Source: Azolla caroliniana
Taxonomy: Eukaryota; Plantae; Polypodiophyta
DNA length: 64,000 bases
Assembly (NCBI GenBank): GCA_043228905.1
Contig: JBHGNT010000015.1
Span: 8,432,001-8,496,000, forward strand
Direction: 5' to 3'
This document shows positions 261 to 64,000 of this stretch, one piece after another. Position 1 is the stretch's first letter, and every line of letters begins with the position of its first letter. The position numbers and the translations under genes are program-made. The notes under the pieces are model-generated. The model worked only from the letters and a program-made list of their open reading frames with translations. It did not search any database and was not told the DNA's origin.

Positions 261-328
261 TGCTAGTGTAATGGTAAGACATTACATTATTAACGTGGAG
301 GTGCAAGGTTCGAATCTTGCCCTATGCA
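261..328 (+). other. tRNA-like (Pol III A-box/B-box) module, probably in the end of an LTR that closes at ...ACGACA (424)
   Basis: TAGTGTAATGGTAA (A-box-like), then a T-arm GCAAG-GTTCGAAT-CTTGC with a perfect 5-bp stem. No intact acceptor or anticodon stems. Confidence 0.55.
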
Positions 329-819
329 TGTTATATATATTTTAATATTTTCTACTATTTATTCATATTTATTAAATCGGTACTTTATAAGTTTTTCACG
401 TAATGTACGAAATACACTACGACACCGTGATACAAACGTATTCCTAACCGGCTACTAACCGGTGTGGTTAAGGATCGTAATACACGCGTAAGATAGATTC
501 TATTAAGCATAGAACAATAATTAACTAAAGCTTCAAAGATTAAACAAGATGTAGAACAACAACACTTTCATTAATAAACCGCTATCTTATTACAATCTAA
601 TCGGGTCCTTTTATAGGTCACCGGCTTTGGGTTACGAATTGGTGTCAACCGGCAACCAACCACGAACCGGTCCGGATCCGGATCGGCATACCAATTTCGG
701 GTCCGTCTGTTCGCTTCTCAAAATATAATAGTTATAGACAACAAATCCTGGTTCTAAAATAATTATCCCTTTCCCATTCTGGACTTTATCCAGCTTTTAA
801 GTCTTTGCCGGTCAACAAA

Positions 820-1316
820 AGATAGAAGACGGATTGGAGACAGCCAATTCGGGCGAAAGCGGGAATGAATTGGAAATGTTCAATTCAGTCATAATGTTCG
901 ATTCCGATACGCCAAATCAAGTAATGGTCAAGCGGAGAAAAAAGCAGCGAAAGAGGCACCAACACCGCAACACCAAAGGAGCTGAGAAAGGGCGCAAGAG
1001 TAGACAAGCCGATCGGAAAGGTTGAAGTGCACGGAATCGAACAGGTCGAGGAGCGCAAGCGAGGTGTGATGCCAGGAGAAGCTGGAGCGAAGATCCAGTA
1101 AAGTGGATGGAACCTCAAGTTGAGCTTGAGGGGGAGTGATGAGAGACAAGCTCAACATTGGGTGAGTATACGGGTACGTAACCAAGTGTGTAGATTGGGT
1201 GTGTAAAACCGTACGCAAAAATATGGTTATGGTGGTGTTTAAACCGAGAGGCCGTAAGAGTGTTATTCCTTGTAAGGAATAATTTTGGGAGTAAGTGTAG
1301 GATGCTCATTTATGAG
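820..1316 (+). mobile_element. 3' end of a dominant-family Copia: 3' extension, PPT and truncated LTR starting at 1137
   Basis: Homologous by eye to 19970-20490. PPT TTGAGGGGGAG is followed by TGATGAGAGACAAGCTCAACA. Confidence 0.75.
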
Positions 1317-4902: not shown

Positions 4903-4985
4903 TATAAAAAGAATAGCGTGCGAAAGCAATAGAAAACCGAACACAGAAATGTAGGTTTAATGGAGAGCTTGAATATACACAGTAG

Positions 4986-5044
<59 letters not shown>

Positions 5045-10566: not shown

Positions 10567-11870
10567 TGTTACAAAATGTGATAGAGGCTATGGTGGGTGT
10601 GATGTCACACAACCTATCCAAACACCAAATCAACATTTCCCTTGTTGGTTGTACTGTTGAGAGATCATGCTCAACTTAGTTTAGTTATTTAGTCAACCAT
10701 GTAACTTCGTAGTTACCTAGATAGAATCTAGTTAGGAGTGTTGACTATAACACCTTAAATAGGACCTTGTACTTAAGTGGGATATTCTAGATCCTCCACT
10801 CCCAAGTACATTTAATATAGGATTTACACCTTTGTACCTATATTCTCCTCACACATGTGCACCCTTGCACATGAGATCTATATATACCTCATTGTAGGCA
10901 TTTTTGTATTTGATGATGATGATGCTAATTTAATATAGAGTTAATCATCCCCCATCTTGTGTTGTTCATAAGTGTAACTTCCTCTCTCTCTTCCTCTCAC
11001 ACACATACACACACATATCATATAATCTTCTACGCTTAACATAATCACATAATTAGGTACTAATTAACCCTTGCTTAATTACCTAATTCTTAACATGGTA
11101 CCAGAGCATGTGGTTTCGAAAATCCACTAAGCCCACCCGACTCTGTGATTGTGTGTTCGAGATGCCGACGACAAAATCCGGCTATCCGCTATCGTAGTGC
11201 CGCTACGTAGCACATGTACGTGACCAAAGGAAGTAAAGCAAAAACGGAAGACACTAAAATCAACATGAACACACAAATGGGTAGCTCGATCCCTAGTGAA
11301 AAGCTAGATCGGAGCAATTATTCATCTTGGGAGTACAAGATGAACCAATACCTTGTCGGCCAAGGGTATTAGAGCTACATCAACGACGCTAAAGAAAATC
11401 AACCCCACCCAAAGAACGCCGACTAGTCAACATGGGAGCAAGCGGTGAGTCGAGTCATGTATTACTTGGCAACATGTGTTCATGACCACATGCTTAGCCA
11501 CAGTCGAGACGCCAAGACGCCCAAAGAGGTGTGGGAGAACTTAAAGAAAATGTTTGCCTCCAACACAACCGCTCGAAAGACATGGCGGAATGCATGAACC
11601 GAATGATCCAGGGGAGAATGACGGCAATGCTCCAACATTCTAGACTGAAGCTGGAATTCTGGGTCGAAGCATTCCAGATGGTCGTCTACTTGATAAATCT
11701 ATCACCATCGAGAGCAATGTGGTTCGAAGTGCTACAAGCACTATGGTCTTGCAAAAAGCCGACCTACGATAGGGGTCCATACATTCGGATGTAAAGCCTA
11801 CACATTCATCCCTAGGGATAAGAGGACCAAACTAATGATGTATATTCTTTGGCTATGTTATAGATGGGGA
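10567..11870 (+). mobile_element. Copia fragment: putative 5' LTR (to 11095), PBS, gag and integrase remnants
   Basis: TGGTACCAGAGC PBS at 11096 after ...TTAACA. KLDRSNYSSWEYKM-type gag and FWVEA integrase motif. LTR start is uncertain. Confidence 0.7.
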
Positions 11871-14800: not shown

Positions 14801-15060
14801 CGAAAGACGTTCGTGGATCAACACAACGGCACCAACGAGAAATGGTTTTAAGTTGGAAAAGTTGTCCTAGTGTTCCAAACACACATGGGACAGATGCCAC
14901 ATAAACTATGATTCAGATGGACCAGACGTTATTGGATTATAGGCGTCGAAAATGGGACATTCGAGCCGGGCGGTCTTGCAGGAGAAGTATTATGCCAAAA
15001 GGTCAATGGGTTTTAGTAGAAGCCGTATTGGGGCCCCACAATGCCCAACCCTTTTCAAGT
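11870..15060 (+). pseudogene. pol: Decayed Ty3/Gypsy pol (PR end, RT, RNase H, integrase)
   Basis: WLSPIVVVPTKNGKIKVCVDY, FGLKTAPTTFQR, FVDASDIAIG and YSTIEREALG in Gypsy domain order, with many stops and frameshifts. Confidence 0.88.
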
Positions 15061-15289
15061 CAATGCGAAAAATGGGCCCACTTCTGCGAGGACGACCGAG
15101 CGGAACAGTCACAGGCCACATTATACGTGCCAAGCCAGTTCTCTACGGATTACGGAAAACCCTTACGATCTCTTAGCTCCCTATGCTCTCCTTGCTCACC
15201 ACGATATCACAAAATCTCTCTCGCTCGAACCGTGCATTCAATTCATTACCCTTGCTCCTCTCAACTCGTCTTCGAAGACATCAACAACA

Positions 15290-15780
15290 TGACGATTGAT
15301 ATCTCCTTAGCAATGCAGCGATGGCTCCAAGATAAGGGACTCGCATACTACATCCGGGTAGCAGAAGCGCCGCCCCACCCAAACTCGCAAGACATGGCAA
15401 GGAAGCTCAATATTGATACCATCACAAATGCCAGCATCAGGAAGAAGTTGGGCCTGTTCCGGAGTGGAGAATGCCACTTTGAGATCCCTGCAACAGGGGC
15501 TCTCGAGCGTTACTTTGGGGAGTACTCTGTCTTGGCCAAAGCTTATAGGACGAGGGATGCAACTGATCCTTTCTTTTGCGAACTTGCGAAGTTTCTATTA
15601 GAAGTGGGGAGCGTGCACACCAATGCGTTCAGGATGCCAAAACAAAATGCGGCCATCTTCATCGCGACATTCCAGGGACATACCATAGATTGGGGAGTCA
15701 TAAAAGGTCCAGCTCTACGCATGGTCTCCATGTGTTCTAGGCCGGGAAGAAACTTCGCCCCATCATCCAATCGTATTTGA
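15290..15780 (+). CDS. Unknown ORF downstream of the Gypsy integrase (possible extra ORF of the element)
   Basis: ATG-started ~163-codon 3' part of ORF 14908-15780 with a globular-looking composition. No recognised motif. Confidence 0.3.
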
Positions 15781-17110: not shown

Positions 17111-17220
17111 AAGAGTTTAAGCCGAAGAGACAATGTCGGGGTAGTTGTGGTGCGAAGTCGCAAGGACGAAGGTTAAGGGGAGTTGAAGGAACTTAAATTT
17201 GAATAAGGCTTGTATGGTGA

Positions 17221-17980
17221 TGTTAGAAAGGTTAAGAATAGCAAGAAGAAGAGTTACGAGTAATGTGTGTGAGAGAGAGAGAGACGAGAATAGATAGAAG
17301 ATAGAGACAATATATGATTCAAGAAGCAAGTGTATTTGATATAAACATGATGTATATTAAAAAGACAATATTTTACCAACTTTACAATCCTTGATCGCAA
17401 ACTGAACACATTCTCTGTCGACCCTTGATTTGAACCCACGACCTCAACTTCGAAACGAGAAGTTCTCCACCCAATGAGCTAGTCTTCTTTACTTGAGTGT
17501 ATTATTTTCTCACTCTCTCTTGATTCCCTCTTTTTTCCTTGCCCCTCTATAGTGTTGCCATGCATATGGTAATGTATGGGAGCATAGCATGCATGCAATG
17601 CATGAGTTACATGTAATGCATGATTGCCATTTGGCGCACATGTATTGCACGTGATGCATGGTAGCCATCATGCTCACTTGAGCTCCCATGTATGAAAATA
17701 GATATGGGATAACTATAATGATGAAAATATATTCTAAAATAACTAACCTAGCTTAGTGGTGTATACTTTGTGTTTGGCATACAAGGTTGAGAGTTCAAGT
17801 CTCTCATTTTTAGTCAATACAATATATAACTTCATTCTTATATCATGAAGCACATTTATTACAAACTCGTGGTATGTACATTGTACTTCGTATATAAGGA
17901 TGTGGGTTCAAGTCTCTCAATTATTATTAAATACAATATTTAAGCTCATTTTTATATCCTGAAGCACATTCTTCATGACA
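17221..17980 (-). mobile_element. Putative LTR (TGTCATGAAG...CTAACA on minus) carrying three tRNA-like modules
   Basis: TG/CA termini, and the start resembles the TGTCGTGAAG LTRs. No partner LTR or TSD found. Confidence 0.4.
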
Positions 17981-20715: not shown

Positions 20716-21192
20716 AGGCGAAAGGTAGGTCTCCTCACCCATGCCAGACCTCTCCATAGCCTTCCCTTTAAATTCCAAGCTCGCTTCGTTGAACATGCCT
20801 ATGCTCCTGATATGATCCAAGAAAGCTTGGCAAGAGACCTTCAGATTCTCTGTAGGCTTGTAGCTGGCGAAGTCGATGAGGTACACGGCCCTCAGCAGAG
20901 ACATGAAGTGTAGGGTCGCGGTGAAGACGATGGTTCCAAAGCAGGCCAATATACTAAACAGATCGAACTCGAAATCTTGCCATACCTGCGAGAAGCCTTG
21001 CTTGGAGAGAGCACCGAGCTCGGCACTAAAGGCTACCCGGAGAGTAGGAATGGTGAAGAGGCAGAAGCCATGGCTGATGAGGTAATGGTAGCTGAGCTTC
21101 ACGTACATTAGGTTACCGGACTGCAAGAAGTTCGGTAGGCAGCGGCGAACCCTAACAGAGAAGCTCACGGAGCCGTTGGGGACGATATCCAT
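20716..21192 (-). pseudogene. KCS: 3-ketoacyl-CoA synthase (FAE1/KCS family, FIDDLEHEAD/KCS10-like) N-terminal fragment, truncated by a Copia LTR
   Basis: FSVRVRRCLPNFLQSGNLMYVKLSYHYLISH ... VYLIDFASYKP ... MERSGMGEETYL match the plant KCS N-terminus. Several conserved residues are mutated and the catalytic domain is absent. Confidence 0.88.
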
Positions 21193-21367
21193 GGACCTCC
21201 TTCACCATGGCCGGGAAGCTGTAGAAAAAGGGATGGATGCTCTGAGGAAATGTTACAGAGGGCGAGAGGAGAAGCTATGCAGAGAATGATCTTCGCGTTG
21301 AGGAGAGGAGTCTAGCGATGCGATATTTGTTGCAGGTGGCCATTTCGTCTGTGAGCTCAGGGCGTGC

Positions 21368-24510: not shown

Positions 24511-25601
24511 TGTCGTGAAGATTTTCGGCGATAGTGTGAAACTTGTGAGGAACATACGACATCGAGTGGTTCTTCTCACGAAATATAAAATAATAATAGT
24601 GAAGATACTATTTTAAATAAGTTTAATATCTTGGTACAAAAAGATGGAGGTCTTGAAGAGCTTTTGAATGCACTTTGCTACATAACAAACGGTCAACTAA
24701 GTGTCAAGTTTCGAAAAAAGAAAAGAAAAGAAAAGAAAAACAAACCTGTGAGATGTCCCACATAGATAGGACAAACAAGGATCCTACAATATATAAAGCA
24801 AAGCCAAAAGCTATTATTTTGTGCTTATGTGTGGAGCATAGAGAGTTCAAGGTGACTTGAACTAAGTTAATCAAATGAATGGGTGTGCCCTAGCTACTTG
24901 CAATGGTTTTGGCCAACCAAAACCGAACCGGCGGCAACTGGCGATAGAGGCGATGGCCGGCGATTGGCCGGTGACAGAACCGGCTAGGGATGCGGACCAA
25001 ACGGGTACAAATCGGACGGATTGGTTGATCGCGATGCATGGTGTCTTAAAGATATTTTGTGTAATTACAAGACCAAAAGCCTAATAATATTTTGTGCTTT
25101 AAAAATTGATGTATGCAAGACTTCAACATTGCACCTCCAAGTTGAGAGTCTATAGGCTTACCATTAAGCCAAATCATTTCTTTAGGGATATATTTTTTAT
25201 CACTATACTTTTACATGTAATTCTCATACATGAGAGCTTAGATGATGACATGGCAAGCATGCATTTCATGCATTCCGTGCATGTCTTGCACCCTCACATG
25301 CACCATATGCATGGGGGCATCTATAAAAGAGTGGAGGAATCAAGCAAGGGGGGGGGACTAATGTAAAATAAAAATTGGAATATAAATTTTGGGGAAAATA
25401 TTAAGAAAACTCGTTATCCTATTGATATATCTTGTCTCTCAAATCTAAAGTCAAGCGTTCAATGTTTATTTTAATCTCTCTCTCTTTCAACCTATCTTAA
25501 ATACTTTCTCACTAAAGCTAGTGCAAACTTCGAATCCTTCTGGTCCAAGCCCCCGGTGGTTTCGCCTCACAATTCGCACCTAGTGACAGATCTTCATGAC
25601 A
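24511..25601 (+). repeat. 5' LTR of the Trp-primed Gypsy
   Basis: Direct repeat of 40856-41746, which lacks an internal segment. TATA-like CTATAAAA near 25321. Confidence 0.92.
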
Positions 25602-25609: not shown

Positions 25610-25627
25610 TGGTGAACCCGACGTGAA
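25610..25627 (+). promoter_or_regulatory. Primer-binding site complementary to the tRNA-Trp 3' end
   Basis: TGGTGAACCCGACGTGAA is the reverse complement of the plant tRNA-Trp 3' end (...TCACGTCGGGTTCACCA). Confidence 0.85.
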
Positions 25628-34696: not shown

Positions 34697-34852
34697 TGTC
34701 GCGAAGATTCGCGTGTGCGTGTGCTACTCGAGCGACCACCGGGGTCTTGGACTGGGGAGGACGTTCGCGGAATTATCGAAGAGATGACGATCAATGTAAG
34801 ATTGGATGAAATTTGTTTACTTGAGAAGAAGAAAGATTGTACACTTGAGAAG

Positions 34853-35583
34853 TGACAGGAACTACACACTCCCTATGTGCAACGCTCGGCCACAACCAAG
34901 CTTAGAATCATACACAGAAAAACGGGAATGAATGCACGACACAGTGAAGAGAAGAGTACACAAGATGTTTACGTGGAAAACCCAAATACGGGAAAAAAAC
35001 CACGGCAGCCCACAAACTGCAAACTATCACTATGTCAGAATGTACAAAAATGGTAAAGCACCGAAGCAACGACCTCGAGCTTTCTATCTTCGCCACAGGC
35101 GGCGGTTACAACAGAGGCAACGACCTCTTCCTCTCTCTCACTCTCTCTGTACACAGTTGCGCGCACAAATCTTGCGCCAACAAGAATAACAACATTACTC
35201 AAAAGTTTTCCCTAAGTCATATTTATACTAATATGACTTTTTGGCTATTTACAAATATAGCCACGATGGACTCTCAGAAACATATTTACGAATATGTCTC
35301 TTCATCCGGTGAGCACTCCTCACCGGGCCTGCATTATCCGGCGCTTGCCGAGTACTCGTCATCCGGTTCTCAACGGGTTTGCACCATCCGGCTCTCCGTA
35401 GCTGGGTACTCGTCATCCAGTTCTCACCGGGTCTTCCGTAGCTGGGTATTCGTCATCCGGCGCTTGCCGGGTACACCACATCCGGTTCTCACCGGGTCTT
35501 CCGTAGCCGGGTACTCCACATCCGAGTTTGATCATCAGTACTGTTCTTCTCACTTCCCATCTGGAGGGACCTGTTTCCTAACA
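34853..35583 (-). mobile_element. Solo LTR inserted in the 3' LTR of the gag-only element
   Basis: TGACAGGAA...TTCCTAACA termini, perfect TSD AGAAG, absent from the partner LTR. Internal ~40-bp subrepeats at 35300-35525. Confidence 0.9.
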
Positions 35584-37023
35584 AGAAGTAGAAAAATATG
35601 AAGAAGATAAAGACGAATATAATTATATTGATGTTAGTGGTGTTGGTGATATCACATGTTGAGCCCCCCTTTACACAAGCTCCACTAGGGTTTTTATAGC
35701 TCTCTTCATCCACAAAACCATGGGTTTAGAACCATGGTTTTGGGGTCACGGTTTTGCTTATGCCATGCACAATCCATGGGTTTAGAACCATGGTTTTGTG
35801 CACATGGTTTTCTATAGTTGTTTCGTTTATAATTCGTATATGAAAAGGAAATACATAAAATTTACACTATATGATAGTTGTCCTAGTGGTAAGGCAAACA
35901 TCTTGTATCTTACAGGTGCAAGGTTCAAACCTTGCTTGCACCCCTCTGTATGAAGTCAAGTGCCACTAGGCCTTAGGCTTATTTGCTAAGTGCATGTGCA
36001 ATGTTGCACATCCTTAGTTTATTCGTCTCACTCGGTTTCACACCGTAGCCGAAAATCATCACGACATCCACCACCACCAAACCCGCACATCCTCCGGTAT
36101 GTGCCGAGAAAGGTGAAGAGGTGAGATCTTTGGCAACGGTGATCAACCGAGTTCCTCCGGACGCTTGTCGACCTCATCTAACTTCGTCTTCCACTTCGAG
36201 TATACCCAATCTTTCCAACTGAACCTCCGTAGCCACCCAATCCACCACATCCGGCACTCACACCTTCTTCCCCGGTCGGTTGTGGTAGATCTACCAAACG
36301 ATGTCATCAATCCGACCGCTCTTCCTTCGTTCACCGCGCTTGTCCTTCGATTGGACTCCTGGCCATTCCTCGCGCTCATCGTTTTCAACTGGGTGTTGTG
36401 GGTGTAGTAGATCTACCGAACGATGTCGTCGATCTGACTGCTCTTCCTTCGTCCACCGCACGTGTCCTTAGATTGGACTCCGGGCCACTCCTCGCACTCA
36501 CCGTCTTCAACTGGGTATCGTGTCAATCTCCGATTAGGCCGGGTTTGCCCTTGTTCGGATCGGTCTCCACCAATCACTTCTTGGCTCGGTTGGCCTTCGT
36601 CATGGCTACCTCCTCAATCACGTCGGACTCAAACACTTTATCTCCCTCGATCATGCAAGCTTTTCTCATGCTTGCACCTTCATCACCTGATGTTTCGTAC
36701 AAAATGCATGTTCTGAAACATTTATCCTCCCTCGAAGTGGCGTTCATTGTCTCCTCCTTGGCCGTCGTTTCTTCGTAAGACAAAAAGGTGACTTGTTTCA
36801 CACCTTCTCTCTCGGTACCGTCATACCGAACCTGAGCCTTTGTATCGGCCACTTCATTAAACCACATTTGTTGGGAGGTCTCTTCTTCCTCGATCACCAT
36901 TCACCTTGGTTTTGTCTCCCTTTTAAGCTTCATTTCTTTTGTTGGTGGCGCGTTGCTGCATCTTGTCCCTCTTTGATTGTCCCTCATGGGCCGTCTTGTT
37001 GTTGTCGATATTCTCGCCCGTCC

Positions 37024-37827: not shown

Positions 37828-38329
37828 CCCCTGTTGCTCTTCACGTCGGTTTCACCAAATGATGTCGTGAAGATTCGTGCGTGCGTGTGCTACTCGAGCA
37901 ACCACCGGGGTCTTGGACTGGGGAGGACGTTCGCGGAATTATCGAAGAGATGACAATCAATGTAAGATTGGATGAAATTTGTTCACTTGAGAAGAAGAAA
38001 GATTGTACACTTGAGAAGTAGAAAAATATGAAGAAGATAAAGACGAATATAATTATATTGATGTTAGTGGTGTTGGTGATATCACATATTGAGCCCCTTT
38101 ACACAAGCTCCACTAGGGTTTTTATAGCTCTCTTCATGCACAAAACCATGGGTTTAGAACCATGGTTTTGGGGACACGGTTTTGCTTATGACATGCACAA
38201 TCCTTGGGTTTAGAACCATGGTTTTGTGCACATGGTTTTCTATGGTTGTTTCATCTATAATTCGTATATGAAAGGAAATACATAAAATTTACACTATATG
38301 ATAGTTGTCCTAGTGGTAAGGAAAACATC

Positions 38330-38835
38330 TTGTATCTTAGAAGTGCAAGGTTCAAACCTTGCTTGCACCCCTTTGTATGAAGTCAAGTGCCACTAGGCCT
38401 TAGGCTTATTTGCTAAGTGCATGTGCAATGTTGCACATCCTTGGTTTATTCGTCTCACTCGGTTTCACATCGTAGCCAAAAATTGTCACAACAACGTAAA
38501 CCAATCGGAGGTTCGAAGGTTCCTTGGAGCATGTGCGTTATATCATATCTGGATTCCGCACTACGGTCATGTTGTTAAGCCATTGTATCTTAGAAGTGCA
38601 AGGTTCAAACCTTGCTTGCACCCCTTTGTATGAAGTCAAGTGCCACTAGGCCTTAGGCTTATTTGCTAAGTGCATGTGCAATGTTGCACATCCTTGGTTT
38701 ATTCGTCTCACTCGGTTTCACATTGTAGCCAAAAATTGTCACAACAACGTAAACCAATCGGAGGTTCGAAGGTTCCTTGGAGCATGTGCGTTATATCATA
38801 TCTGGATTCCGCACTACGGTCATGTTGTTAAGCCA
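38330..38835. repeat. 253-bp tandem duplication spanning the LTR/host junction
   Basis: Units start at 38330 and 38583. One C/T difference seen (CATCGTAG vs CATTGTAG). Confidence 0.95.
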
Positions 38836-40855: not shown

Positions 40856-41746
40856 TGTCGTGAAGATTTTCGGCGATAGTGTGAAACTTGTGAGGAACAT
40901 AAGAAATTGAGTGTGGTTCTTCTCACGAAATATAAAACAATAATAGTGAAGATACTATTTTAAATAAGTTTAATATCTTGGTACAAAAAGATGGAGGTCT
41001 TGAAGAGCTTTTGAATGCACTTTTGGCCAACCAAAACCGAATCGGCAACAGCCGGCGAGGCGGCAGCAACCGGTGACTAGCCGGTGACGGAACTGGATCG
41101 AGATGCGGCGATTGGCCGGTGACGGAACCGGCTAGGGATGCAGACCAAACGGGTGCAAATCGGATGGATCGGTTGATCGCGGTGCATGGTGTCTTAAAGA
41201 TATTTGGTGTAATTACAAGACTAAAAGCCTAATAGTATTTTGTGCTTTAAAAACTGATGTATGCAAGACTTCAACATTGCACCTCCAAGTTGAGAGTCTA
41301 TAGGCTTACCATTAAGCCAAATCATTTCTTTAGGGGTATATTTTTTATGACTATACTTTTACATGTAATTCTCATACATGAGAGCTTAGAGGATGACATG
41401 GCAAGCATGCATTTCATGCATTCCGTGCATGTCTTGCACCCTCACATGCACCATATGCATGGGGGCATCTATGAAAGAGTGGAGGAATCAAGCAAGGGGG
41501 GACTAATGTAAAATAAAAATTGGAATGTAATTTTTGGGGAAAATAATAAGAAAACTCGTTATCCTATTGATATATCTTGTCTCTCAAATCTAAAGTCAAG
41601 CGTTCAATGTTTATCTTAATCTCTCTCTCTTTCAATGTATCTTAAATACTTTCTCACTAAAGCTAGTGCAAACTTCGAATCCTTCTGGTCCAAGACCCCA
41701 GTGGTTCCGCCTCAGGATCCGCACTAAGTGACAGATCTTCACAACA
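40856..41746 (+). repeat. 3' LTR of the Trp-primed Gypsy
   Basis: Direct repeat of 24511-25601, following the PPT. Confidence 0.92.
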
Positions 41747-44154: not shown

Positions 44155-45775
44155 GCATCACATCGGCTCAATATGGCTCTTTCCGAATTGGCACACTTTT
44201 TCCAACACTCACTCTCCTTGTGGCCCTTCCGGCCACAACACCAGTTGTCCTTCGCGGCATTTCCTTGCTGGCTTCTAGCTCCACCTTGACTACCCATGCT
44301 CATGGAGGGTCTGGAACTGTTGTCCGCATCTCTATTATCCCTCTGGGTCTACTCCTATCGGCCGCGTCCATGTACAACATCTTGTTCCTATGTCCATGTT
44401 CCTGTTGTTCTACAAGACAAAAACTTGTCTTTGACTTGTTCGCTTTGTTGGTAGCAAAGGATTCTTCTAACCCTTGTGCTCTGATACCATGTAAAGAATT
44501 ACTTGCGAAAGCGTATTCGAAGGACATAGAGTACCCAGTCGGTTATCTGGGAATATCAACAATTAGGTGTATACAAAGTGAGTGAGAGAGACAGACTAAG
44601 TGAGTAGACAAACCAAAAACTTTCATTACTTACTGCTCAGTACATACAATGTGCTCAGTGAGCACTTTTTATACAAGCCCTGACGAGTGGGTTGACAAAA
44701 GTACTAGCAATACTTTAATGCTCATGAATGAGCATGACACTAACTACCTATATTATTCCTATTTACTAAAATAGTAATATGGGCCCCTAATGGTGTCGTG
44801 AGAATTTCCGGCAACGGTGAGAAAACCGGGTGAGAGTGTATAAAATGGCGATGAGCAATGTTTGCACATCAACATCAAGGAAATGTAAATATTTATGAGA
44901 AAGGAAAACGGGACTATAATGTGTTGAAGTGCACTAAGGAGTTAGCAAGAGGTACGTGTGATGAGTACGTAGTGTATATCACACATTAGGTAGTAGGTAG
45001 TAGGGTGGGAGTTAGAAGAGATTTAATGTAACACCCCCTAGAATTGAGGCAAATATCCTCCCCTGAAATAGAGGGAAATATTTTGCCTCCCACATTGTAA
45101 TGTCCCTCCCTTCTTGGACTATAAAAGGACGGGAGGGTCTCTTGTAGAAAGGTTCCCCCATTTTGGTTTTTCTCTCTTCGGTTGTGGGGTCCCATTTTGG
45201 TGTGTTGAGGCGTTTAGGGTCTGAGGTCTCCTGACCTCGTATGCTCTGAGGGTTCAGGTTTTCTGTTGTGTCTCCTACGCAAGGTCTCCAGTAGTGGTAG
45301 TGACCATGAGAGCTCCCCGACTGGAGGCTTGCTTGCAGATATTCATTGTATCTAGTCCGTTCGGTTTAGCTCGAAGCTAGAGATGTAATCAAGTGCTCCT
45401 ATATTTATTTATTTTTATTGTGCATAACTGTCTTTGTCGGTGTCGAATGTGTTTCTTCCTTTCCGTTTCTACACACAAGGTGTGCACGTGTGTGGGTCTC
45501 TCTCTCTCTCTCTCGCTCTCTATCCATTGCTTCTGGTACATATCTGGAAACACTTTAGTCGGTGTCCTAGCTGGACACCAAAACCGGTGAGGTGAAGCTT
45601 GGTCTTTCATCCTCAGTCTCTCTCAGGTTCAAGACCCCGGTGGTCCCACGACCATGGCAACAACTTGTTGGATTCCATGCGACTCGGCATAACTGATCAA
45701 TCTCCATCCGATCCGGCTCCGGCATCTTTAGTAGATCTGGTTCTCAGCTTCGTCAGCCAATTTGGCCCAAGTTGA
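44155..45775 (-). mobile_element. Deleted Copia 5' end: gag scrap, PBS and LTR 44490-~45775 (interrupted by a solo LTR)
   Basis: GCTCTGATACCA at 44478-44489. LTR homologous to 56323-56766. Confidence 0.8.
44794..45653 (+). mobile_element. Solo LTR of the TGTCGTG type
   Basis: TGTCGTGAG...CCCACGACC termini, 4-bp TSD ATGG, TATA-like CTATAAAAG. Absent from the homologous LTR at 56323. Confidence 0.8.
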
Positions 45776-47547
45776 CCTTGGTCGCTCTTCTTCTTGATCA
45801 GGCATGCCCAGGTATGCCGAGTGTAGTCATTGATGAAGGTTACGAAGTAATGACTCCCACCAATACTCACGTTTTGCGTCGCCCCCCACACATCCGAATG
45901 GATTAAATCGAGCATGTTATGGCTCCTATTGCGGTCATTGGTGAATGGAAGTTGGTGATGCTTCCCTAATTGACAGGCTTCGTAGACTTGGCCCTTTCGG
46001 CCACTGAATTTCGGCAAGCCGAAAATGATGTTTTTCGTCTTCATTTCCTGAAGCCATGGGAAGTTGACATGGACAAATCTCTTATGCCACAGATTAATGT
46101 CTAACTCGACCTTTTACTCTTTGGTGAACATAGTGGTGCCAATGTCATTTTTCTCGAGGATAAGCATCCTCTGTTCCTCCCTTCTCGGTGCCCTTGTGCA
46201 ATAATCTGTCCTTCTTCCTCTATGTAGCACCCAAGGTGAGTAAATCGAACTTGCATGCCCTGGTCGACCAGTTTTCTAACTGACACCAGGTTCTTGGTGA
46301 GTTTCTACACATGCAAGACATTTCTCATGATTCCTTCCTCTCTTACTCACATGGCTTAGAGGGACATTATCATCATCGCCAGTTTCGACGATCCCCGACT
46401 GTTCCTTCGTCTCTAAGATCGAGCACCATAACTACTTGTGATTCATCATATGGTTTGATGCTCTACACCTCGTTTGATTTCAAGGTGCCCCCCATATCAT
46501 CAAGTGCGATCAGCATATTGTGATCTTTGATGCCTATCCACATCACCTTGGCTCAATGCGGCTTGGTCCGAATCGGCATGCTTTTTCCAACACTCGCTCT
46601 CTCTGTGGCCCTTCCGGCCACAATACCAGTAGTCCTTCGTGGCCTTTTCTTGCCGGATTCCAGCTCCCCCTTGACTCCCCATGCTTGTGGAGGTTCCGAT
46701 TGTTGGAATCTTTATTATGCCTCTAGTTCTACTCCTATTGGTCGCCGCCATTGTGTACCAATCCGCCTCCATGTACAACATCTTGCTGTCAATGTGTGTG
46801 CTCGTTAACACACCTAATGTGTGCTCGTCAACACACCCATGTGGTTCTCCTCTACGAGGAGCATCGACTGTAAGTCGAATCAGCTCATATTTTTGAGCTA
46901 ACCGCCCAAGGCAAATTTGTACCATCTCATCTTCGTCCACAGTGACACGGATGGACCCAAGTGCATCACAAATCTCCATGATCTTTGTGGTGTAGTAAAT
47001 TACCAACATACCTCCTTGTCAGATGTTGTTGAGCTCCTATTTGAGCTGTAACTTACGGGTTGTGGTGTTGGCAGCAAATATCCTCTTTAGATTCCCCCAA
47101 GCATCCTTTGGTGACTTCGCATCTTTTATATAGTTTAGCATCTAGTCACTCACATAGGACGTGAAGTAGTACAAGACTTGGCTTGTTGCCTAGTCCCAAG
47201 ATGGAAAGTCTCTCTGCGACAACTAAGTGTCATGATAACACTCACATCATGCATCGAAAGGATCATGACACTCACATTATGACTCAAAAGGATTTGAACC
47301 CACGACCTTGTTGTACACATGTCAAATCCTTAACCATTGTATTAATATTCTTAAATGTATAGTCTCTAGAATATGAAATCTAATATCATAGGAATATTCT
47401 ATATTACTCTACATTCTAGAATGACCTAGAATATTCTAGAGTGTTCTATACCACTAGAACCTTGTAGATTTTTTTTTCCTTTCATCTCTTCGTCTTCCAC
47501 AAACCCTAACAAGTTCTCTTCTTCCTTCTCCTCTCCCCTCGTAAGCT

Positions 47548-51700: not shown

Positions 51701-52224
51701 CCGATCGTCATCGTCTAAACTCCTCAAAAAAGTTCCGCATTGGGGATCATGTATGGCTTCTCCAACACAACATCAAGACCACTCGACCTTGCAGTAAATT
51801 GGATTACCAATGTTTTGGCCCTTACATGATCACTGGTAAGATAAGTGATGTTGCATTTCGTCTTGACCTCCCTCCGCACATGCATCTTGATCCGGTGTTT
51901 CATGTATCCCTTTTGGAACCTTATACTACAAGTTCAATTCCGGGCCGTCTTACGACACCCCCACCACCTGTCGAGTTCTTGGACGGGCCTGAATTTGATG
52001 TTGTTGTCGTTCTCGATTCTAAAATCGTGCGCAACAAGCTGTATTACTTAGTCGATTGGCTTGGCTATACCCCCAATGATCGAACTTGGGAACCTGCCGC
52101 AAATCTTTCCAATGTTGCAAAACTCGTCAATGCATTTCATCGCCAATATCCTTGTAAAGCAGGTCCTAATACAAACCCTACAACACGTGAGACGTGTCGT
52201 CGAAGAAGGGGGATAGTGTCATGA
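48800..52224 (+). pseudogene. pol: Chromovirus pol: PR-RT-RH-INT-chromodomain, frameshifted
   Basis: ORFs 48858-50027, 49919-50659 and 50659-52224. Chromodomain YYLVDWLGYTPNDRTWEPAANL. Confidence 0.93.
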
Positions 52225-52678
52225 TAACACTCACATCATGCATCGAAAGGATCATGACACTCACATTATGACTCGAAAGGATTTGAACCCACGACCTTGT
52301 TGTACACATGTCAAATCCTTAACCATTTTATTAATATTCTTAAATGTATAGTCTCTAGAATATGAAATCTAATATCATAGGAATATTCTATATTACTCTA
52401 CATTCTAGAATGACCTAGAATATTCTAGAGTGTTCCATACCACAAGAACCTTCTAGAATACTCTAGAGATCTTCTAGATTACTCTACATTCTAGGATAAC
52501 CTAGAATATTCTAGAGTGTTCTCTATTACTTATAAATAGGGATCTACCACCCATCCCAAACCTAAATTGGTTCAACACCATCTCTTTGTAATCCATTTTA
52601 CGCTTCAATATAATAATTCTCTTTCAATTATCTCTCTATCTCTTTTTCTCTCTCTTTCTCTATCTCTCAGTCTTGACA
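52217..52678 (+). repeat. 3' LTR of the chromovirus
   Basis: TGTCATG...TCTTGACA. The first ~240 bp match 47228 onward. TATAAATA at 52531. Confidence 0.9.
52355..52522 (+). promoter_or_regulatory. Heat-shock-element-like nGAAn/nTTCn array upstream of the LTR TATA box
   Basis: Perfect AGAACCTTCTAGAAT at 52445-52459 plus repeated GAATATTCTAGA units. Confidence 0.55.
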
Positions 52679-52779
52679 CTCTGACGCTAAATCCTTCACT
52701 CCTTCCACATAACTCCAATATCCACTCCCAAGTAGGTATTGATGCATCTTGTAGGACCAAGATGCGTAGTTGCTCCTAT

Positions 52780-55700
52780 GGGACTATAAGTGATTCACGA
52801 TTGAAAGTAATGTTTTGGAATTGTAGAGGATATCCATGGAATAAGGGTTTAGGACTCAATGATGTAGCTCAAGGTATGGATATTATATTTTTGGCTGAAA
52901 CATGGGAGCATGATGCAAAACGTATACCTAAGATAGACGGTTACCTCATAAAATCGATATGGCCTCACTCCAAAGGGAATATTGGGCGTGTCGGGATAGC
53001 ATGTATTTACCATGAGAGCTTAGATAATTCTATTAGAGTATGCAAATATGATGACTATAAGAGATACATATGGATAGAGGTTAATTTGAGGAAAGAGAAG
53101 TTGTATATAGTTGCATGTTACATTCCTCACAAAGACTCAAACTACTATAGTAGGTTTGGGTTAGATTGTGATGAACCTTTTATAGAGTTATGCCATAATA
53201 TACTTTCATTTGAGAAGCTTGGTAAAGTTTTAATTATGGGAGACTTCAATGCAAGAGTTGGAAATTTCCAAAACGTGGAGACATTTGAAGAAAATGTAAT
53301 AGAACATTGTCTATTGCGTGACTCAAAGGATTGTGTCATGTCAAATTATGGAAAACTTTTGATACATATGCTAAATTGTACAAACTTGATTATCCTAAAT
53401 GTCATAAACACATTCCCATTGACAAATGTGCTCACATGTTTACCATCCTCGGGTGGAGGAAGTGTGGTTGATTACGCATTAATGTTGGCATGTGATCTAT
53501 CATTGGTGAATGTGTTTAAAGTTGGTTCTCTATCTCCGGCCTCAGACCACAAGCCATTGTACTTAGAGCTTGCAATTCCACATTCCACTAGATGTCGTGA
53601 AGTGAAAGACAAAAAGAGATGTATCATCTGACCTTGCTACGAAAAAGCTAAGATGTAAGCAAATGAAGTGGAGAACCATTTGTTAATTTTTTCTCTAAGC
53701 AACGATGTTAAAGAAAATTGACAACATTTGAAGGATATAATCCTTAAGGTTGGATATCAATGCTTTAAGAGACATGTGGGTGGGCATAAGGTGTGTGTAG
53801 TTTTCCATGTAATTCTTGGTTCGACGATGAATGTAAGATGTATCTCAAATGTTTTAAGTCCATAGAAGGGGGGAATGAAAAGATTGTTGCATGGCACATA
53901 TACAAGAAAGTAGTGAGGAGAAAGAAAAGAAGATATTTCCAAATGCAAGAGATGAAAAAGAAAAACTTGTTTAATCTCAAACCAAAATTACCATGGGGAC
54001 AACTCAAGGTTAAGAAAGAAGATGTGAAAGGTCACTTTACAAATGAAGAGATGCTAGACTATGTACAAAGGTTATATATGCATGACGGTGTGGCTCCTAT
54101 GGTTAAAAAAATTGAAACTCCATGCACTACATGTATTGATATTGATGATATCAATAAGGGAATAAAGAAGATGGCAAGTGAGAAAGCAGCAGATTCAACC
54201 TACGTCTCAAGTGAGCTTTTAAAATGGACAATGCCACCCACTCGTCATTGGATAATGACAATTTTAGAGCAAGCTATAAAACAAGGATTTCCAAATGATT
54301 GGATTATGAATTGGATTAAACCAATATAATTTTAAAGGCGGAGATAAGAATTAAGCAGCAAATTATCATACAATAATGGTGAGCTCAACTATTGCTAAAT
54401 TATATAGTACTATTATGGAGCAAAAGATAAGTACATGGGTTGAGAGTACAAGCAAAAGAGCACTTGGGCAAGCCGGATTTAGACCAAAACACTCCACCAT
54501 GGATCATTTGGTCACATTAAGAGTAATCATGGAAGAGAGTCGACTACAAAGAAAAACACTTTATTGTTGTTTTGTTGATTTCAAGAAAGCTTTTGATACC
54601 ATACCATGAAGTGGGCTTTGGAATAGAATGGTGGACATTGACATGCCATTAGAGTACCGAGTTGCGGTTGCATGCCTATATGAACAAGTTAAATGCCAAC
54701 TAAAAATGGATAGTGGATTCTCAAAGAGCTTTTTAAGTAACATGGGGGTCAAGCAAGGATGTCCACTATCACCCACACTCTTTGGTTTATGTATTGATAA
54801 ATTAGAAGAAGTGGTGAATAAGGTTGCAAGAGAAGAAGGATTGAATGGCCCCAATTTGATGCAACATGTTATCTTATTGCTTCTATATGCAGATGATGTG
54901 GTACTCTTCTCATATGATGTTGATAGTATGCAACATTTACTTGGGGTATTAGAAGAATTTTGCCATAGTAGTGGACTGGCAGTGAATGTGGAGAAAACAA
55001 AAATGATGGTAATGCAAACCATCCAACCTCATCATTACCCTATGCTCACATATAAAGGTGAACATATACACAATTTGTTAAAAGCTTTAAATATCTTGGT
55101 ATTGATGTACCCGCCACAAATAAATGGAGTGCATGCTTTGATTCTAGACTCCAAGCTGGTTCGAAATCATATTTACCTTTTGGAGAACCAATGCAACCAA
55201 AGAGATACTTGTGGATGGGAAGTAAAATTAATGTTGTTCAATGCCATGGTAACTCAAGTATTGCTTTAGAAGTATGGGGTGGCACCATCTCTCTTAATGC
55301 ATAGAACGAGATTGAGAAAATTCAAAAGATGTTTTCAAGGAGGCAATTAGGAGTTAAATGCACTACCTCTTACCAGGTTATGCTCTTAGAAATAGGTGTT
55401 CGACCCATAGAACTATTGGCACTCCAAAGAGTATATAAATACATTACAAAAGTCAAGAATATGCCGAATCATCGATTACCACATCTTTCTTGGAATGTTG
55501 GATGTAAGCTACAAAAGAATCATAAAAGTAAGATTCTCTCATATGGTTGGGTTGTTGACATAAATAAATGGTTTAGAAGATGGGGTGTGGATGATCTTTT
55601 AGAGCTTTCAGGCAATGCTATGCAATATGTAATGATTGAGGAAAGGTTGGTGGAATCATTAAGGATGAAGTGGGAGGATGCTAAGAGGACAAAGTTAGAA

Positions 55701-56204
55701 TACTACATTGCAAATGTCAACCCTGAATGTTGGTCTCAATATAAAGAAAGAATGTCTATTGATCGTATCCAACCTTATCTCATTACCAATATGAGTAGCA
55801 ATGCTCGTAGAGCCCTTACACTACTTCGCACTCGATCTCACAAGTTAGGTATTGAAGTTGCATCATGGTATCAAAATGTAATGAATTTGAAGACATGTAA
55901 AGTATGCAATGAAGGCATGGTAGAGGATGAATGTGACCTACTCTTCACATGGTCGACATATAGTGCAATTCGTTCAAGATATGTTGACATACTAAGAGGG
56001 AGTGATAACTTAAGACCCATACTTAAGACACCACCTAGAAGGTTGAGTTTATATGTGTATGCTTTATTAACACATAGACTTTTTGTGCTTCAACATATGA
56101 ATACCCCTTCTTAGGAAGACATATATCAAGAACACGTGTATACTCTGGTCCCATAGGTCAAAATTGGCCTCTTTATGGACGATAAAAATACTAATTCTAA
56201 TTAT
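52780..56204 (+). mobile_element. Non-LTR retrotransposon (LINE) with APE endonuclease and RT, decayed and 5'-truncated (RTE/RTEX-like, tentative)
   Basis: MFWNCRG, LAETW, MGDFNAR, SDHKPL, QAGFR, FVDFKKAFD, GVKQGCPLSPTLF, LLYADD and C-terminal RSHKLGIE..CKVC..VEDE. Confidence 0.92.
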
Positions 56205-61568: not shown

Positions 61569-61590
61569 CAAACAACCCAAAGGAACACCG

Positions 61591-62172
61591 GTGGATATAT
61601 GTGAAGCTCACTTCGAGAGCGACGATACTAGTTTCACTATCCCTGTCTGTGTCAACGGCATGAGGTGTGACGCAATCATTGACACCGGAGCAGGGGTAAG
61701 TATAGTCAGCTATGAATGTTGGTGTAAGTGTGGGAGCCCACAAATGCTTCCTTCGGACGTCAAACTCCAAATGGCCGATGGGTCCATCCAATGGCCAGAA
61801 GGCATGATCCCTACGCACCACTTCACTATCCACGAGGTCAAGTTTAATCTCACGTTCGTTGTCACAAGATCATCCAATCATGTGGCTTACGAGTGTTTAC
61901 TTGGGAGACCATTCCTACGTGTAAGTTTCCTTGTGATGGATTTCAGGAACGATACAATCTATATGCGTAAAAACAACAAAACCTTTCGTATCAAAGCATA
62001 CACACAAAAAGTCCACAAACAAGAAGGCAACCCTCTCGTGGACGACTGGTCAGAAACCACCGAGTTTGAGACCAACCTCCTAGCATGTCACCCCAGAAAG
62101 GCAGTTCAAATCTTGGCTAGGGGTCAACCGTTTCCCCAAAAATCCACTAATCCTAGGGTAGGGAATGCGTGA
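61591..62172 (+). CDS. Retropepsin-like aspartic protease
   Basis: D-T-G active-site motif and LLGRPFL. Confidence 0.75.
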   Translation: MDICEAHFESDDTSFTIPVCVNGMRCDAIIDTGAGVSIVSYECWCKCGSPQMLPSDVKLQMADGSIQWPEGMIPTHHFTIHEVKFNLTFVVTRSSNHVAYECLLGRPFLRVSFLVMDFRNDTIYMRKNNKTFRIKAYTQKVHKQEGNPLVDDWSETTEFETNLLACHPRKAVQILARGQPFPQKSTNPRVGNA

Positions 62173-63140
62173 GAAGACCAATCCGAAGCATCCTATGCGT
62201 CGGAGATGAATTGGGTGCATGCTCTAGCCATGACCGATGCAATGTACCCCATTGGTACAAAGTGTCGCAATGAGGATGGAGACACGATCTCGTGTTTTAA
62301 TGTCACCACTCTCGTACCCCAGCGGAAACCAGTAGAAGTAAAAGACGAAGACTTCACACAACGAATCACGTGCCAAGTGAATGCCTCCTGTCGCCAAGCA
62401 AGAACATCGTCTCCTTCCAAACAGAAAATGGGGTGAGGTCCGAGAAACTTGTTGCAACAACACTCGAATCACGTCTCACTGATCTCGACGAACTTCAAAG
62501 CGCGAAACCACCCAACCAAAAAGAAACCGCACAACCACTGGCCATCCACGACTAGAGCAACGCTAACATCAGAACAAAGACACCCGTGCCATGCAAATGG
62601 GTGAACATCCATGCGATTTTCGCTCAAGGACCACACCGTGGAGAAAAGCACTAAAAAACGCCCAATGCCGCTACCAGGTTCTGGGTCCCGAAACAAATCC
62701 CACTTCCCACCCGAGACCGTACCACAACTACACGGGACACCCGACAACTGCGCACATTGGTCAAATACCCTGCCCACGTAAAGGCCATAGAACTTGACAA
62801 GACTAAACAACTAGGAGGCCGAATGCCCCATAAAAGTACTTCACAGGCCCTCCTCGTCCCTTTGACAAAGATGTCACGGGTCTGGCTCCTTAAAAATATA
62901 CAAAGACCCTCGAACAACACCCCCCCCCCCCCCCCCACACCCACCCCCTAAAGTCCTCCCAAAAACTCCTAAATTTCCCAAACTCTCACGAAACCCCCAG
63001 TGGACCCCCGTCCAACTCTACTGTCCGCATATAAACCTTGGCCCGCCCCACACTCTTTTAAACCCACCTCCTACCTTATGTCATCCCGATCATCAACTAC
63101 TCGACCCGTCTTCTCCCCCGACCTCTGTTACCGCAACCGA

Positions 63141-64000
63141 TGTCGTAAAGATTTTCGCCAACGGTGTGAAAATTGAATGGAATGTACAAAATTGAGTGTG
63201 GTTCTTTACACACAACATAAAAAAATAATACTGAAGATACCATTTTATACTAGTTTAATATCTTGGTACAAAAAGATGGAGGTCCTCAAGAGCTTTTAAA
63301 TGTACTTTACTACATTTAAAACTAATAACCAAATGTCAAGTTATGTGAATGTGAAGTTTGAGAAGAAGAAGAGAAAAACAAAATTTTAAGATATCCCACA
63401 TAGATAGGACAACATCATGATTCAAGAGTATATAAGTAAAAGTTTGTGAAGTATGCAAGGAGCACAAAAAGGTTAAGTTGTATAACTTGGATGAATAGAG
63501 TGGCCAAGTTATTCGAATAGTATTTTGGACGGAATCGGAACCGGACTCGGACGGATGACGATGGATCCGGGAGCAGGACCGGACGATGATTGGATGAAGC
63601 CGGCGAGACGGCGATGGACAAGATCGGATTGAACCGGTCGGGACATGCGGATTAGTCAGTTGATCGCGATGCATGGTGTTTTGAAGATTTTCGGTGTAAA
63701 CACAAGACCAAAAGCTTGGTAGTATTTTGTGTTTTGAAAAGGATGTGAGCAAGGCTTGAACCTTGCACCTCCAAGTTGAAATTCAATAGGCTTACCATTA
63801 AGCAAAGTCATATCTTCAAAAGCTTTACTTTGATCATTTTCTATGTAAATTCTCATATATGGTTATCATGTAATACATGAGCGCCAAATGGCAAACATGC
63901 ATCTCATGCATGTCTTGCACCCTCACAAGCATCATGTGCTTGGGGGCATCTATAAAAGAGTGGATGGGGAGGAAAAACGAGCTATGTATTAATCAAGAAA
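63141..64000 (+). mobile_element. LTR related to 24511-25601, running off the window end
   Basis: Starts TGTCGTAAAGATTTTCG. Shares TTTAATATCTTGGTACAAAAAGATGGAGGTC, the tRNA-like module and the CATG-rich pre-TATA block. Confidence 0.85.

Follow-up and report, generated by a model that had tools for sequence, protein, structure and literature searches.

Elements and modules of the window

The window, i.e., the whole 64-kb stretch of DNA analysed here, probably that of a seed-free plant, carries LTRs and more complete elements of several Gypsy-type families, in which modules resembling the A and B boxes of tRNA-type Pol III promoters are embedded (Table 1). All 11 box pairs listed in the preliminary description were found at the coordinates and strands given there, and they belong to the LTRs, as had been claimed, being present in both LTRs of elements A, B, and C. 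Modules occur in 9 of the 10 Gypsy-type LTR segments of the window, in none of the 14 Copia-type segments, which agrees with their reported absence from Copia LTRs, and in none of the four unclassified ones; as these segments are related to each other, no p-value is claimed for the counts. A profile scan of the 64-kb window detected no free module copies outside LTRs. The occurrence of modules in several Gypsy families, autonomous ones included, was also borne out, elements A and C encoding gag, RT, and integrase (a Copia element and element B are nested inside A). The wording "large Gypsy elements" suits A and C, but not the gag-only element B, the gag of which is 32% identical to that of element A.

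Table 1. LTRs of the window and the modules located in them
Feature	Position	Strand	Remarks
LTR G, partial, Phygy-like	1..424	-	starts at 424, cut by window start; inserted in Copia-type LTR; flank CCGT fits NCGN target
Module G	264..319	+	antisense in U3 of LTR G; Rfam tRNA 20.6 bits over model 8-63
LTR E, lone, high-copy	17134..17980	-	Gypsy-like by U3 similarity to A/D and Tcn1-like LTRs; minus-strand TATA near 17550
Module E1	17424..17481	-	sense; ~65 bases downstream of TATA
Module E2	17749..17804	+	antisense in U3 of LTR E; canonical 5/5 T stem; T run at tRNA position 67
Module E3	17862..17917	+	tandem duplicate of E2; A-box start missing in this copy
Element A, 5' LTR, Phygy-like	24511..25601	+	target repeat ACGA/ACGG; tRNA-type PBS at 25610
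Module A5	25116..25171	-	antisense in U3; TATA 149 bases downstream; B box with G52T and C56G
Element B, 3' LTR	34697..36066	-	split by solo LTR at about 34940-35583
Module B3	35879..35934	+	antisense in U3, 179 bases upstream of TATA; B box within near-perfect dyad
Element B, 5' LTR	37863..38493	-	gag-only element; tRNA-type PBS
Module B5	38306..38361	+	B-box-only duplicate near 38590-38614, in local duplication
Element A, 3' LTR	40856..41746	+	internal deletion in U3
Module A3	41264..41319	-	identical to A5
Phygy-like solo LTR	44794..45653	+	target repeat ATGG/ATGG; no module (internal negative)
Element C, 5' LTR, Tcn1-like chromovirus	47228..47468	+	truncated before TATA
Module C5	47288..47344	-	antisense, close to LTR start
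Element C, 3' LTR	52217..52678	+	module, AT stretch, heat-shock-element-like array (6 TTC..GAA/GAA..TTC units), TATA near 52531
Module C3	52277..52333	-	antisense; TATA 196 bases downstream
LTR D, relative of A	63141..64000	+	~70% identical to A; cut by window end
Module D	63750..63805	-	antisense in U3; TATA 144 bases downstream; B-box core intact

Judging by their traits, the likely hosts of the modules are Tcn1 chromoviruses and Phygy non-chromoviruses. A chromodomain and self-priming are described for the former and a 4-bp NCGN target repeat for the latter (PMC6317226, PMC2864245). Element C carries a chromodomain on its integrase (PF00385), its homologues include a fungal (Absidia) protein, and a self-primer was found in its close relatives, the corresponding region being deleted in element C itself. 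Elements A, B, D, and G show the Phygy-like set of traits, namely, the NCGN target repeat (4-bp flanks ACGA/ACGG in A, CCGA in D, and CCGT in G, while those of B mismatch each other), the lack of a chromodomain, and a tRNA-type PBS, which presumably corresponds to tRNA-Trp; their named homologues are those of Riccia and Ceratopteris. The RTs of the Phygy-like and Tcn1-like host elements are 29% identical.

Detection and conservation of the modules

A generic A+B consensus composed of textbook motifs and untrained on the window (no more than two mismatches in total, spacing of 28-62) gave 11 matches in the window compared to 1.0 ± 0.95 in 40 block shuffles. Eight of these matches are module sites, each with an A-to-B spacing of 43-45, and the remaining three lie within Copia sequence. 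With a two-box profile trained only on 10 metagenome Tcn1-like LTR modules, all from outside the window, the top 10 ranks of the window were occupied by module sites (24.6-36.6 bits), the best score over 60 shuffles being 22.6. Module E3 (site 17865) scored lowest of the 11, at 10.9 bits; contigs of other LTR E copies run on with an intact A-box start, and thus the module in the window is a damaged copy. Tcn1-like and Phygy-like modules were each detected by the profile of the other clade.

That the modules are conserved beyond the surrounding LTR, as the preliminary description had implied, is indicated by the profile ranking, by the identity of boxes compared to spacer, and by the comparison of element A with LTR D. 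In nine Tcn1-like families the mean pairwise identity amounts to 0.84 in the A box (positions 14-20), 0.79 at positions 44-47, and 0.84 in the B box (53-61), vs. 0.33 in the spacer (26-43) and 0.27-0.31 at the acceptor positions, a contrast that owes part to anchoring, as G18-G19 and the B core served as alignment anchors, whereas positions 14, 20, and 44-47 largely did not. The identity of A and D is 50/57 in the module and 46/60 and 41/60 in its flanks, and the neighbouring U3 is often unalignable between module-bearing families. The LTR pair of element A differs at 0 of 57 module positions vs. 28 of 579 in the rest of the LTR; within the modules of the B and C pairs the differences number 3/57 and 1/58, respectively. 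Among close copies of element C, however, the module shows no excess conservation, with variable sites at 5 of its 55 bases and at 23 of the 411 bases elsewhere in the LTR.

The conservation is not uniform within the boxes. In the A box, the 5' half is loose (identity of 0.41), and the match to TRGYNNARNNG is 14/17 for T8, 16/17 for A14, 17/17 for G18, an anchor, and 8/17 for G10, which stands at 98% in the cross-taxon matrix given in PMC12498455. The B-box core GTTCRANNC is present in 9 of the 11 window modules, and both modules of element A carry C56G, a change reported in PMC5391098 to abolish TFIIIC-dependent targeting in Dictyostelium. Of 25 modules, 23 keep G18 and G53 at a distance of 35-38. 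As TFIIIC accepts 30-60 bases between the boxes (PMC12498455, PMC5391098), neither this tight spacing nor the conservation of positions 44-47 is explained by binding alone.

Modules in related elements

Relatives were fetched from metagenomes by the Tcn1-like integrase alone, without selecting on the LTR, which gave 79 loci, 48 of them scorable. Full modules were found in 13 and partial ones in 3 of these 48, in two subclades, all of them antisense and no farther than about 100 bases from where the LTR starts. The other 32 scorable loci, including L025, which is placed within a module-bearing subclade, have no module; the quick tree of these relatives omits six scored loci with fewer than 150 aligned residues. 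In the protease-RT linker of L008, an antisense tRNA-like piece was also noticed. Viral contigs yielded no useful relatives. Contigs of organisms A and B span module E1, those of organisms C and D covering its B-box side only thinly.

Self-priming, recognised as a match of 9-12 bases of the RNA start to the sequence immediately following the LTR, was found in 5 of the 10 Tcn1-like loci tried: L005, L008, and L013, which contain the module, L030, which contains a partial one, and L025, which contains none. The self-priming site of these relatives places the RNA start 31-35 bases after the TATA box.

Orientation and place in the LTR

Ten of the 11 window modules are antisense to their own element and lie in U3, the TATA box of the Pol II promoter following 144-196 bases further inward; this orientation is not mentioned in the preliminary description. 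The sole sense module is E1 of LTR E. The order of the LTR components is LTR start, module, AT stretch, cis-element array, and TATA box, the arrays next to the modules consisting of heat-shock-like or RY-like elements. A and T make up 65-90% of the 60-base stretch that precedes the A box, and TFIIIB is described as being placed on the upstream AT-rich region (PMC3395662). The first T4 behind the module falls at tRNA position 100 or earlier in 9 of 18 modules and beyond position 500, or is absent, in 4 of 18; the terminator position is not conserved.

These observations do not support the proposed role of the modules as Pol III promoters for the element RNA. The modules point away from the element, and the RNA start, as deduced from the self-priming geometry of the relatives, follows the TATA box, which indicates that the module does not make this RNA. 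A use of the modules as landing pads for insertions was likewise not supported, as no listed insertion junction in the window lies within 100 bases of any A-box start, the nearest one, at 116 bases, being the element's own end.

Tests for a tRNA gene, a shared RNA fold, and a SINE

ARAGORN predicted no tRNA genes in the window or in 60 of the 79 integrase-fetched loci, and an Rfam search with the full window gave no match. When short stretches were searched, one of the five modules tested matched the tRNA family (264-320, 20.6 bits, with a cut-off of 29), aligning to model positions 8-63 with one insertion. In no case did RF00005 reach 29 bits, nor was a four-stem cloverleaf present, and the modules were rejected as tRNA genes.

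The conserved T stem that had been reported was not confirmed. There is no covariation, and the T stem pairs no better than swapped partners; the GCAAG...CTTGC pairing encloses 8 bases instead of the 7 of a T loop, whereas only 2-3 of 5 pairs form in the tRNA register. Pairing of the anticodon and acceptor positions is at shuffle level, the D stem is slightly above controls (2.9 of 4 pairs, p about 0.04), and RNAalifold found 0 pairs in a shared fold. When a canonical T stem was required, the enrichment disappeared (10 observed vs. 6.8, with settings of 4 mismatches and 4 pairs), which indicates that the stem is not the signal.

Copy-by-copy insertion of a SINE is not supported either, since in Tcn1-like families the LTR terminus lies at tRNA position 67-124, which leaves no room for a SINE body. 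No clean module-free joint was found among the joints listed (15 of 18 and 15 of 39). Read-through into the primer as the origin of the modules does not agree with the mismatches of the module 3' side to the primer of element A.

Possible function of the modules

The retention of boxes and spacing together with the loss of the RNA shape likely indicates TFIIIC binding rather than tRNA production. The reading that we favour, with a confidence evenly balanced between belief and doubt, is that the module may be bound by TFIIIC as DNA and act on the LTR promoter next to it. The backward A/B-box pair, at tRNA spacing, lies at the upstream edge of the U3 promoter and would work as DNA, binding TFIIIC, likely with TFIIIB on the adjoining AT-rich stretch. 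The bound TFIIIC could keep the adjacent Pol II promoter open and shielded from flanking silent chromatin and from read-through. As part of U3, the module of the 3' LTR is placed by reverse transcription at the two ends of each new insertion. It would be accessory and inessential, given its loss from several lineages and from one copy pair. TFIIIC binding, the barrier action, and the gain for a transposing lineage are extrapolated from yeast and mouse work; TFIIIC-bound B boxes are described as barriers and as blocks to Pol II read-through in yeasts (PMC3395662, PMC4228148). The geometry of the modules fits the idea of a TFIIIC insulator. The integration of element A despite C56G in both of its LTRs speaks against this reading, as do the loose A-box 5' half, the absence of the module from many relatives, and its ordinary variability among close C copies, and we found no demonstration in the literature of barrier activity of plant TFIIIC. 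A wider proposal, which we put forward only tentatively, is that autonomous Gypsy elements of seed-free plants might carry a portable tDNA-type barrier, i.e., a TFIIIC/TFIIIB platform at the outer LTR edge, that would let them stay transcribable within nested silenced repeats, and that this U3 cassette might have passed between Tcn1 and Phygy elements. The U3 sequence shared between the clades fits one capture with later exchange equally well as repeated capture.

An unlikely alternative is that of a working antisense Pol III unit, with its RNA or the transcription itself as the function. Short RNAs would run outward from the 5' LTR and, from the 3' LTR, back over the PPT and the integrase end, and would tune the copy number or hold the promoter nucleosome-free. 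The A-box core, the B box, their spacing, and the AT-rich upstream region are all retained, half of the modules have a T4 close behind the tRNA 3' end, and degenerate type 2 promoters are reported to function inside the retroelement BLV (PMC12498455). However, the terminator is not at a conserved position and in several families is missing from the LTR, and neither RNA sequence nor fold is shared.

Quite improbable, in our view, is that a tRNA or SINE head inserted long ago into an ancestral LTR and left the module as a neutral, decaying remnant, which spread through inheritance and exchange between LTRs. The loss or damage of modules in many lineages and copies and the lack of excess module conservation in close C copies would be expected of such a relic, and the linker of L008 provides another antisense tRNA-like capture. 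Yet within the same 60 bases, the length of which is kept, spacer and acceptor are near-random and the box cores stay at ~0.8, even if anchoring accounts for part of this contrast.

We give little credence to a role at the RNA level, in which the sense-strand U3, by its complementarity to tRNA D and T loops, would pair with a host tRNA and aid priming, dimerisation, or packaging. It would account for the antisense orientation and the U3 position, the conserved positions are those common to most tRNAs, and in Ty3 the U3 base-pairs with two arms of the primer tRNA, T and D (PMC5371799). As the Tcn1-like relatives self-prime, though, they need no primer tRNA; the conserved bases are scattered and form no contiguous helix, and modules A, B, D, and G match the primer 3' end, as read from the PBS of A, at only 4-7 of 15 positions.

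The conserved bases are still less probably Pol II factor sites of an enhancer that merely resemble A and B boxes. The adjoining heat-shock-like or RY-like arrays and the loose A-box 5' half agree with this explanation, and the sense-strand bases of the module resemble MYB-type and W-box-type motifs; on the other hand, A14, G18G19, 44-47, and 53-61 stand at exact tRNA distances, and one module aligns with the Rfam tRNA model with a single insertion. It is hardly credible that the module drives Pol III transcription of the genomic RNA, which is the case in Cassandra and has been proposed for Helenus: the boxes are similar to those of Helenus (PMC10886601) and LTR E has its one sense module, but the other window modules and all LTR modules of the relatives are antisense, the elements are at least 5 kb long with T runs and a TATA box, and E1 is followed by a T4 at position 125.

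Relation to known systems

One close likeness is to Helenus/TRIMp3 (PMC10886601), in which tRNA-derived A and B boxes lie in both LTRs, conservation is centred on them, and there is no functional tRNA; one family comes from the seed-free plant Selaginella. Helenus elements, however, are non-coding and 311-1263 bp long, unlike A and C with their gag, RT, and integrase and B with its gag; their tRNA part is sense in the four LTRs examined, and this part is presumed to stand in for a Pol II promoter, whereas an intact TATA box accompanies the modules described here. According to the same source, the autonomous partners of Helenus must use Pol II, and "not a few" Repbase LTRs contain tRNA-like sequence, TRIMs alone being analysed (Kojima 2024, PMC10886601); some such LTRs may therefore already be deposited unremarked. 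Cassandra is also a TRIM whose plant LTR has Pol III promoter boxes under selection, but these are of the 5S type 1, replace the Pol II promoter of a non-autonomous element, and drive an LTR-to-LTR RNA (10.1101/2023.07.14.548913).

In yeast tDNA barriers, ETC and COC sites, and mouse B2 SINE boundaries, often beside divergent promoters, box DNA affects nearby chromatin and Pol II units with no need of a tRNA product (PMC3395662, PMC4228148, PMC8136502). Those are host loci or non-LTR elements, while the modules, as putative TFIIIC sites, are a fixed part of LTRs; ETC sites have only a B box instead of A and B, and the B2 SINE boundary is credited to CTCF (PMC8136502). The bipartite PBS of yeast Ty3 likewise places tRNA-complementary sequence in a Gypsy U3, but it pairs with its own specific primer (PMC5371799), whereas one of the host clades of the modules is self-priming, and the conserved bases are spaced as along a linear tRNA sequence. 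No tRNA-like LTR sequence is described for Tcn1 or Phygy elements in the consulted portions of PMC6317226 and PMC2864245, the terms "tRNA" and "polymerase III" do not occur in the Physcomitrium TE paper (PMC7466625), and we found no published description of an antisense U3 tRNA-like module.

Pol III boxes of LTRs have been described from tiny non-coding TRIMs, in which the Pol II promoter is replaced. Here, large high-copy elements of two distant clades retain an antisense box pair next to an ordinary Pol II promoter, which suggests a different role, possibly that of a cis-acting protection from silencing that relies on host machinery the host can hardly alter. In that case, these LTRs would act, in their thousands, as mobile TFIIIC sites that structure chromatin domains, and would provide a compact, naturally varied system for testing TFIIIC insulation in plants. 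Such modules probably also lead to false annotations of tRNA pseudogenes and SINEs.

Detection and conservation of the module

All 11 A-box/B-box pairs reported in the preliminary description were found again at their positions and strands. A generic two-box pattern matched the window 11 times versus 1.0 in 40 shuffles, and eight of these matches, with an A-to-B spacing of 43-45, were previously listed sites. With a matrix derived from 10 modules outside the window, 10 of the 11 sites took the top ranks (24.6-36.6 bits; shuffle maximum, 22.6). When the matrix was instead trained on six window modules, element C being left out, and applied to 404 kb of outside sequence, outside LTR modules occupied 11 of the top 12 places, the 12th being an insert similar to Helenus, a group of short non-coding TRIMs with tRNA-derived LTRs. 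Nine of the 10 Gypsy-type LTR segments of the window contain the module (LTR E being counted as Gypsy-type on U3 similarity alone), while it is present in none of the 14 Copia-type segments, as had been noticed earlier, and in none of the four unclassified ones. That the module is a tRNA gene was rejected: ARAGORN predicted 0 tRNA genes, and in the proposed covariance check the Rfam scores fell below the cut-off.

Among 17 non-redundant modules, the conserved bases of the A-box side (tRNA numbering) are T8 (14), A14 (16), T16 (16), T20 (16), and G18G19, whose count of 17 is set by their use as the alignment anchor; G10 occurs in only eight. Positions 44-47 are kept in 15-16 modules, and those of the B-box side are G53, T54, T55, and A58 (17 each), and C56 and C61 (16 each). 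The expected excess conservation of the boxes was observed across nine Tcn1-like families, in which the cores are 0.79-0.84 identical versus 0.33 for the spacer. Pairing in the anticodon and acceptor stems is at the shuffle level, that in the D stem is slightly above controls, and the T stem, for which compensatory changes had been anticipated, pairs no better than swapped partners. The paired T stem described previously does exist in A, B, D, G, and metagenome locus L007, but as a dyad that surrounds the B box, its loop being 8 bases long. No consensus RNA fold common to the modules was found, and T runs have no fixed place relative to them. Since the cores are kept while the spacer, fold, and T runs are not, selection appears, judging by the sequences, to target DNA boxes and their spacing rather than an RNA.

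The module is a real, conserved component of these LTRs, and as such it is apparently undescribed. No description of tRNA-like boxes in autonomous plant Gypsy LTRs was found in the full-text literature, Repbase and most subscription journals being outside the scope of this search. Kojima 2024 (PMC10886601) reports similarity to part of a tRNA for a fair number of Repbase LTRs, with only TRIMs analysed. The module extends the capture of Pol III boxes by LTR elements, with a function that we infer.

Host elements and layout of the LTRs

The window is composed of nested LTR retrotransposons and one LINE. The modules are hosted by elements A and B, chromovirus C, LTRs D and G, which are cut by the window ends, and the lone LTR E. 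Element A is Phygy-like, with a 4-bp NCGN repeat, and B is its gag-only relative. A and C share 29% identity in their reverse transcriptases. Named integrase homologues are liverwort and fern proteins for A, and include a fungal one for C; taken with how PMC6317226 describes the clades, they indicate a seed-free plant. In data from four coded organisms (four runs), several hundred contigs per run cover LTRs C and E. The start of many C copies lies some 25 bases away from the B box, and copies of E have either one or two antisense modules.

With the LTR orientation set by PPT, PBS, coding strand, or TATA, the common order is the LTR start, the opposite-strand module, about 60 AT-rich bases, a cis-element-like repeat array, and TATA. 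The A box lies 113-196 bases from TATA in LTRs where the latter could be placed. We take the arrays to be heat-shock-like in C, L006, L007, L036, and L038, and RY-like in A, D, E, L004, L005, and L041. The sole exception to the antisense layout is E1, a sense-strand module about 65 bases past TATA.

At five loci, the sequence directly past the LTR is complementary to a stretch of 9-12 bases starting 31-35 bases after TATA; such a match was not found in five other loci tried, some of which lack that region. A self-priming arrangement of this kind is predicted for Tcn1 in PMC6317226. By the self-primer position, the RNA would begin downstream of both TATA and the module, which argues against the module being a Pol III promoter for the genomic RNA of the element. 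By contrast with the antisense module described here, the tRNA part has the sense orientation in four Helenus LTRs of the PMC10886601 supplement.

Relatives and origin

A search with aligned C-terminal integrase and chromodomain sequences yielded 79 metagenome loci, selected without regard to LTRs. A 3' LTR was recognisable in 48 of them (31 were unscorable), with a full module in 13, five of which were first noticed by eye, a partial one in three, and none in 32. A quick tree with 47 rows shows the module in all nine scorable rows of the subclade containing C (support 99); in a second subclade (support 98), it is full in three, partial in one, and absent from one. Two changes would be enough to account for this distribution, and the module may have had one origin followed by losses.

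The view that the modules are part of the LTR and not later SINE insertions was supported: body and tail are absent, as are clean empty sites among the joints listed (15 of 18 and 15 of 39), which disfavours copy-by-copy insertion. The module could derive from a SINE head or tRNA captured long ago. The U3 behind the module in D or E is closer to that of Tcn1-like L005 and L041 (z 6-11 versus mononucleotide shuffles, partly owing to short motifs common to both) than the latter are to C, a likeness that hints at an exchange of U3 cassettes between clades.

Possible function

By analogy, the module most likely acts as a TFIIIC/TFIIIB barrier. TFIIIC would bind the A and B boxes and load TFIIIB onto the AT stretch between the module and the enhancer. 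In the 5' LTR, the bound module would form a barrier or open patch on the outer side of the promoter, from which read-through and adjacent heterochromatin would be expected to approach. Each step is extrapolated from yeast and mouse work (PMC3395662, PMC4228148, and PMC8136502). Against this reading stand the C56G change in the B boxes of both element A LTRs, the loose 5' half of the A box, the lack of the module in 32 of 48 scorable relatives, and the lack of extra module conservation among close copies.

Antisense Pol III transcription from the module is an unlikely explanation, and a neutral relic is somewhat less probable. Slightly less credible again is a Ty3-like tRNA-pairing site in U3, which accounts well for the antisense orientation but fits poorly with self-priming. 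That the conserved bases are Pol II factor sites is the least probable of these four.

Other features

Several further features were recorded (see table). The sense-strand B box at the predicted RNA start may be a coincidence of the self-priming motif. In element B, one B box may be common to two converging A boxes. No boxes like those in the L008 linker occur at the equivalent place in window element C and seven other linkers examined, which suggests a separate capture, and the L062 insert looks like a Helenus solo LTR.

Additional features of the window and of metagenome loci
Sequence	Position (strand)	Feature
Window	11860-15770	Degenerate, LTR-less Gypsy pol of a third kind
Window	14905-15777	ORF without Pfam family, after the decayed Gypsy pol
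Window	17424-17481 (-)	E1, sense module of LTR E
Window	20689-21201 (-)	FAE1/KCS-type fatty-acid elongase gene fragment, flanked by Copia LTRs
Window	23036-23742	Tandem repeats with a unit length of 189 bases, within a Copia element
Window, element B	35921-35973 (-), 38348-38400 (-), 38601-38653 (-)	B box forming a near-perfect dyad, with an opposite-strand A-box-like sequence 42 bases off
Window	52560-52575	Predicted RNA start/self-primer forming a good sense-strand B box, ~30 bases past TATA
L004, L005, L006, L041		Equivalent sense-strand B box in Tcn1-like LTRs
Window	52790-56200	LINE (endonuclease, RT) inserted directly past element C
L008	1008-1062 (-), 6332-6386 (-)	Second antisense A/B-box-like stretch, in frame, in the linker between protease and RT in each of two tandem Tcn1-like elements
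L062	~1476-1660	TG...CA insert (<200 bases) that contains an almost complete tRNA-like sequence and has a 5-bp target repeat, within a fungal-type RT
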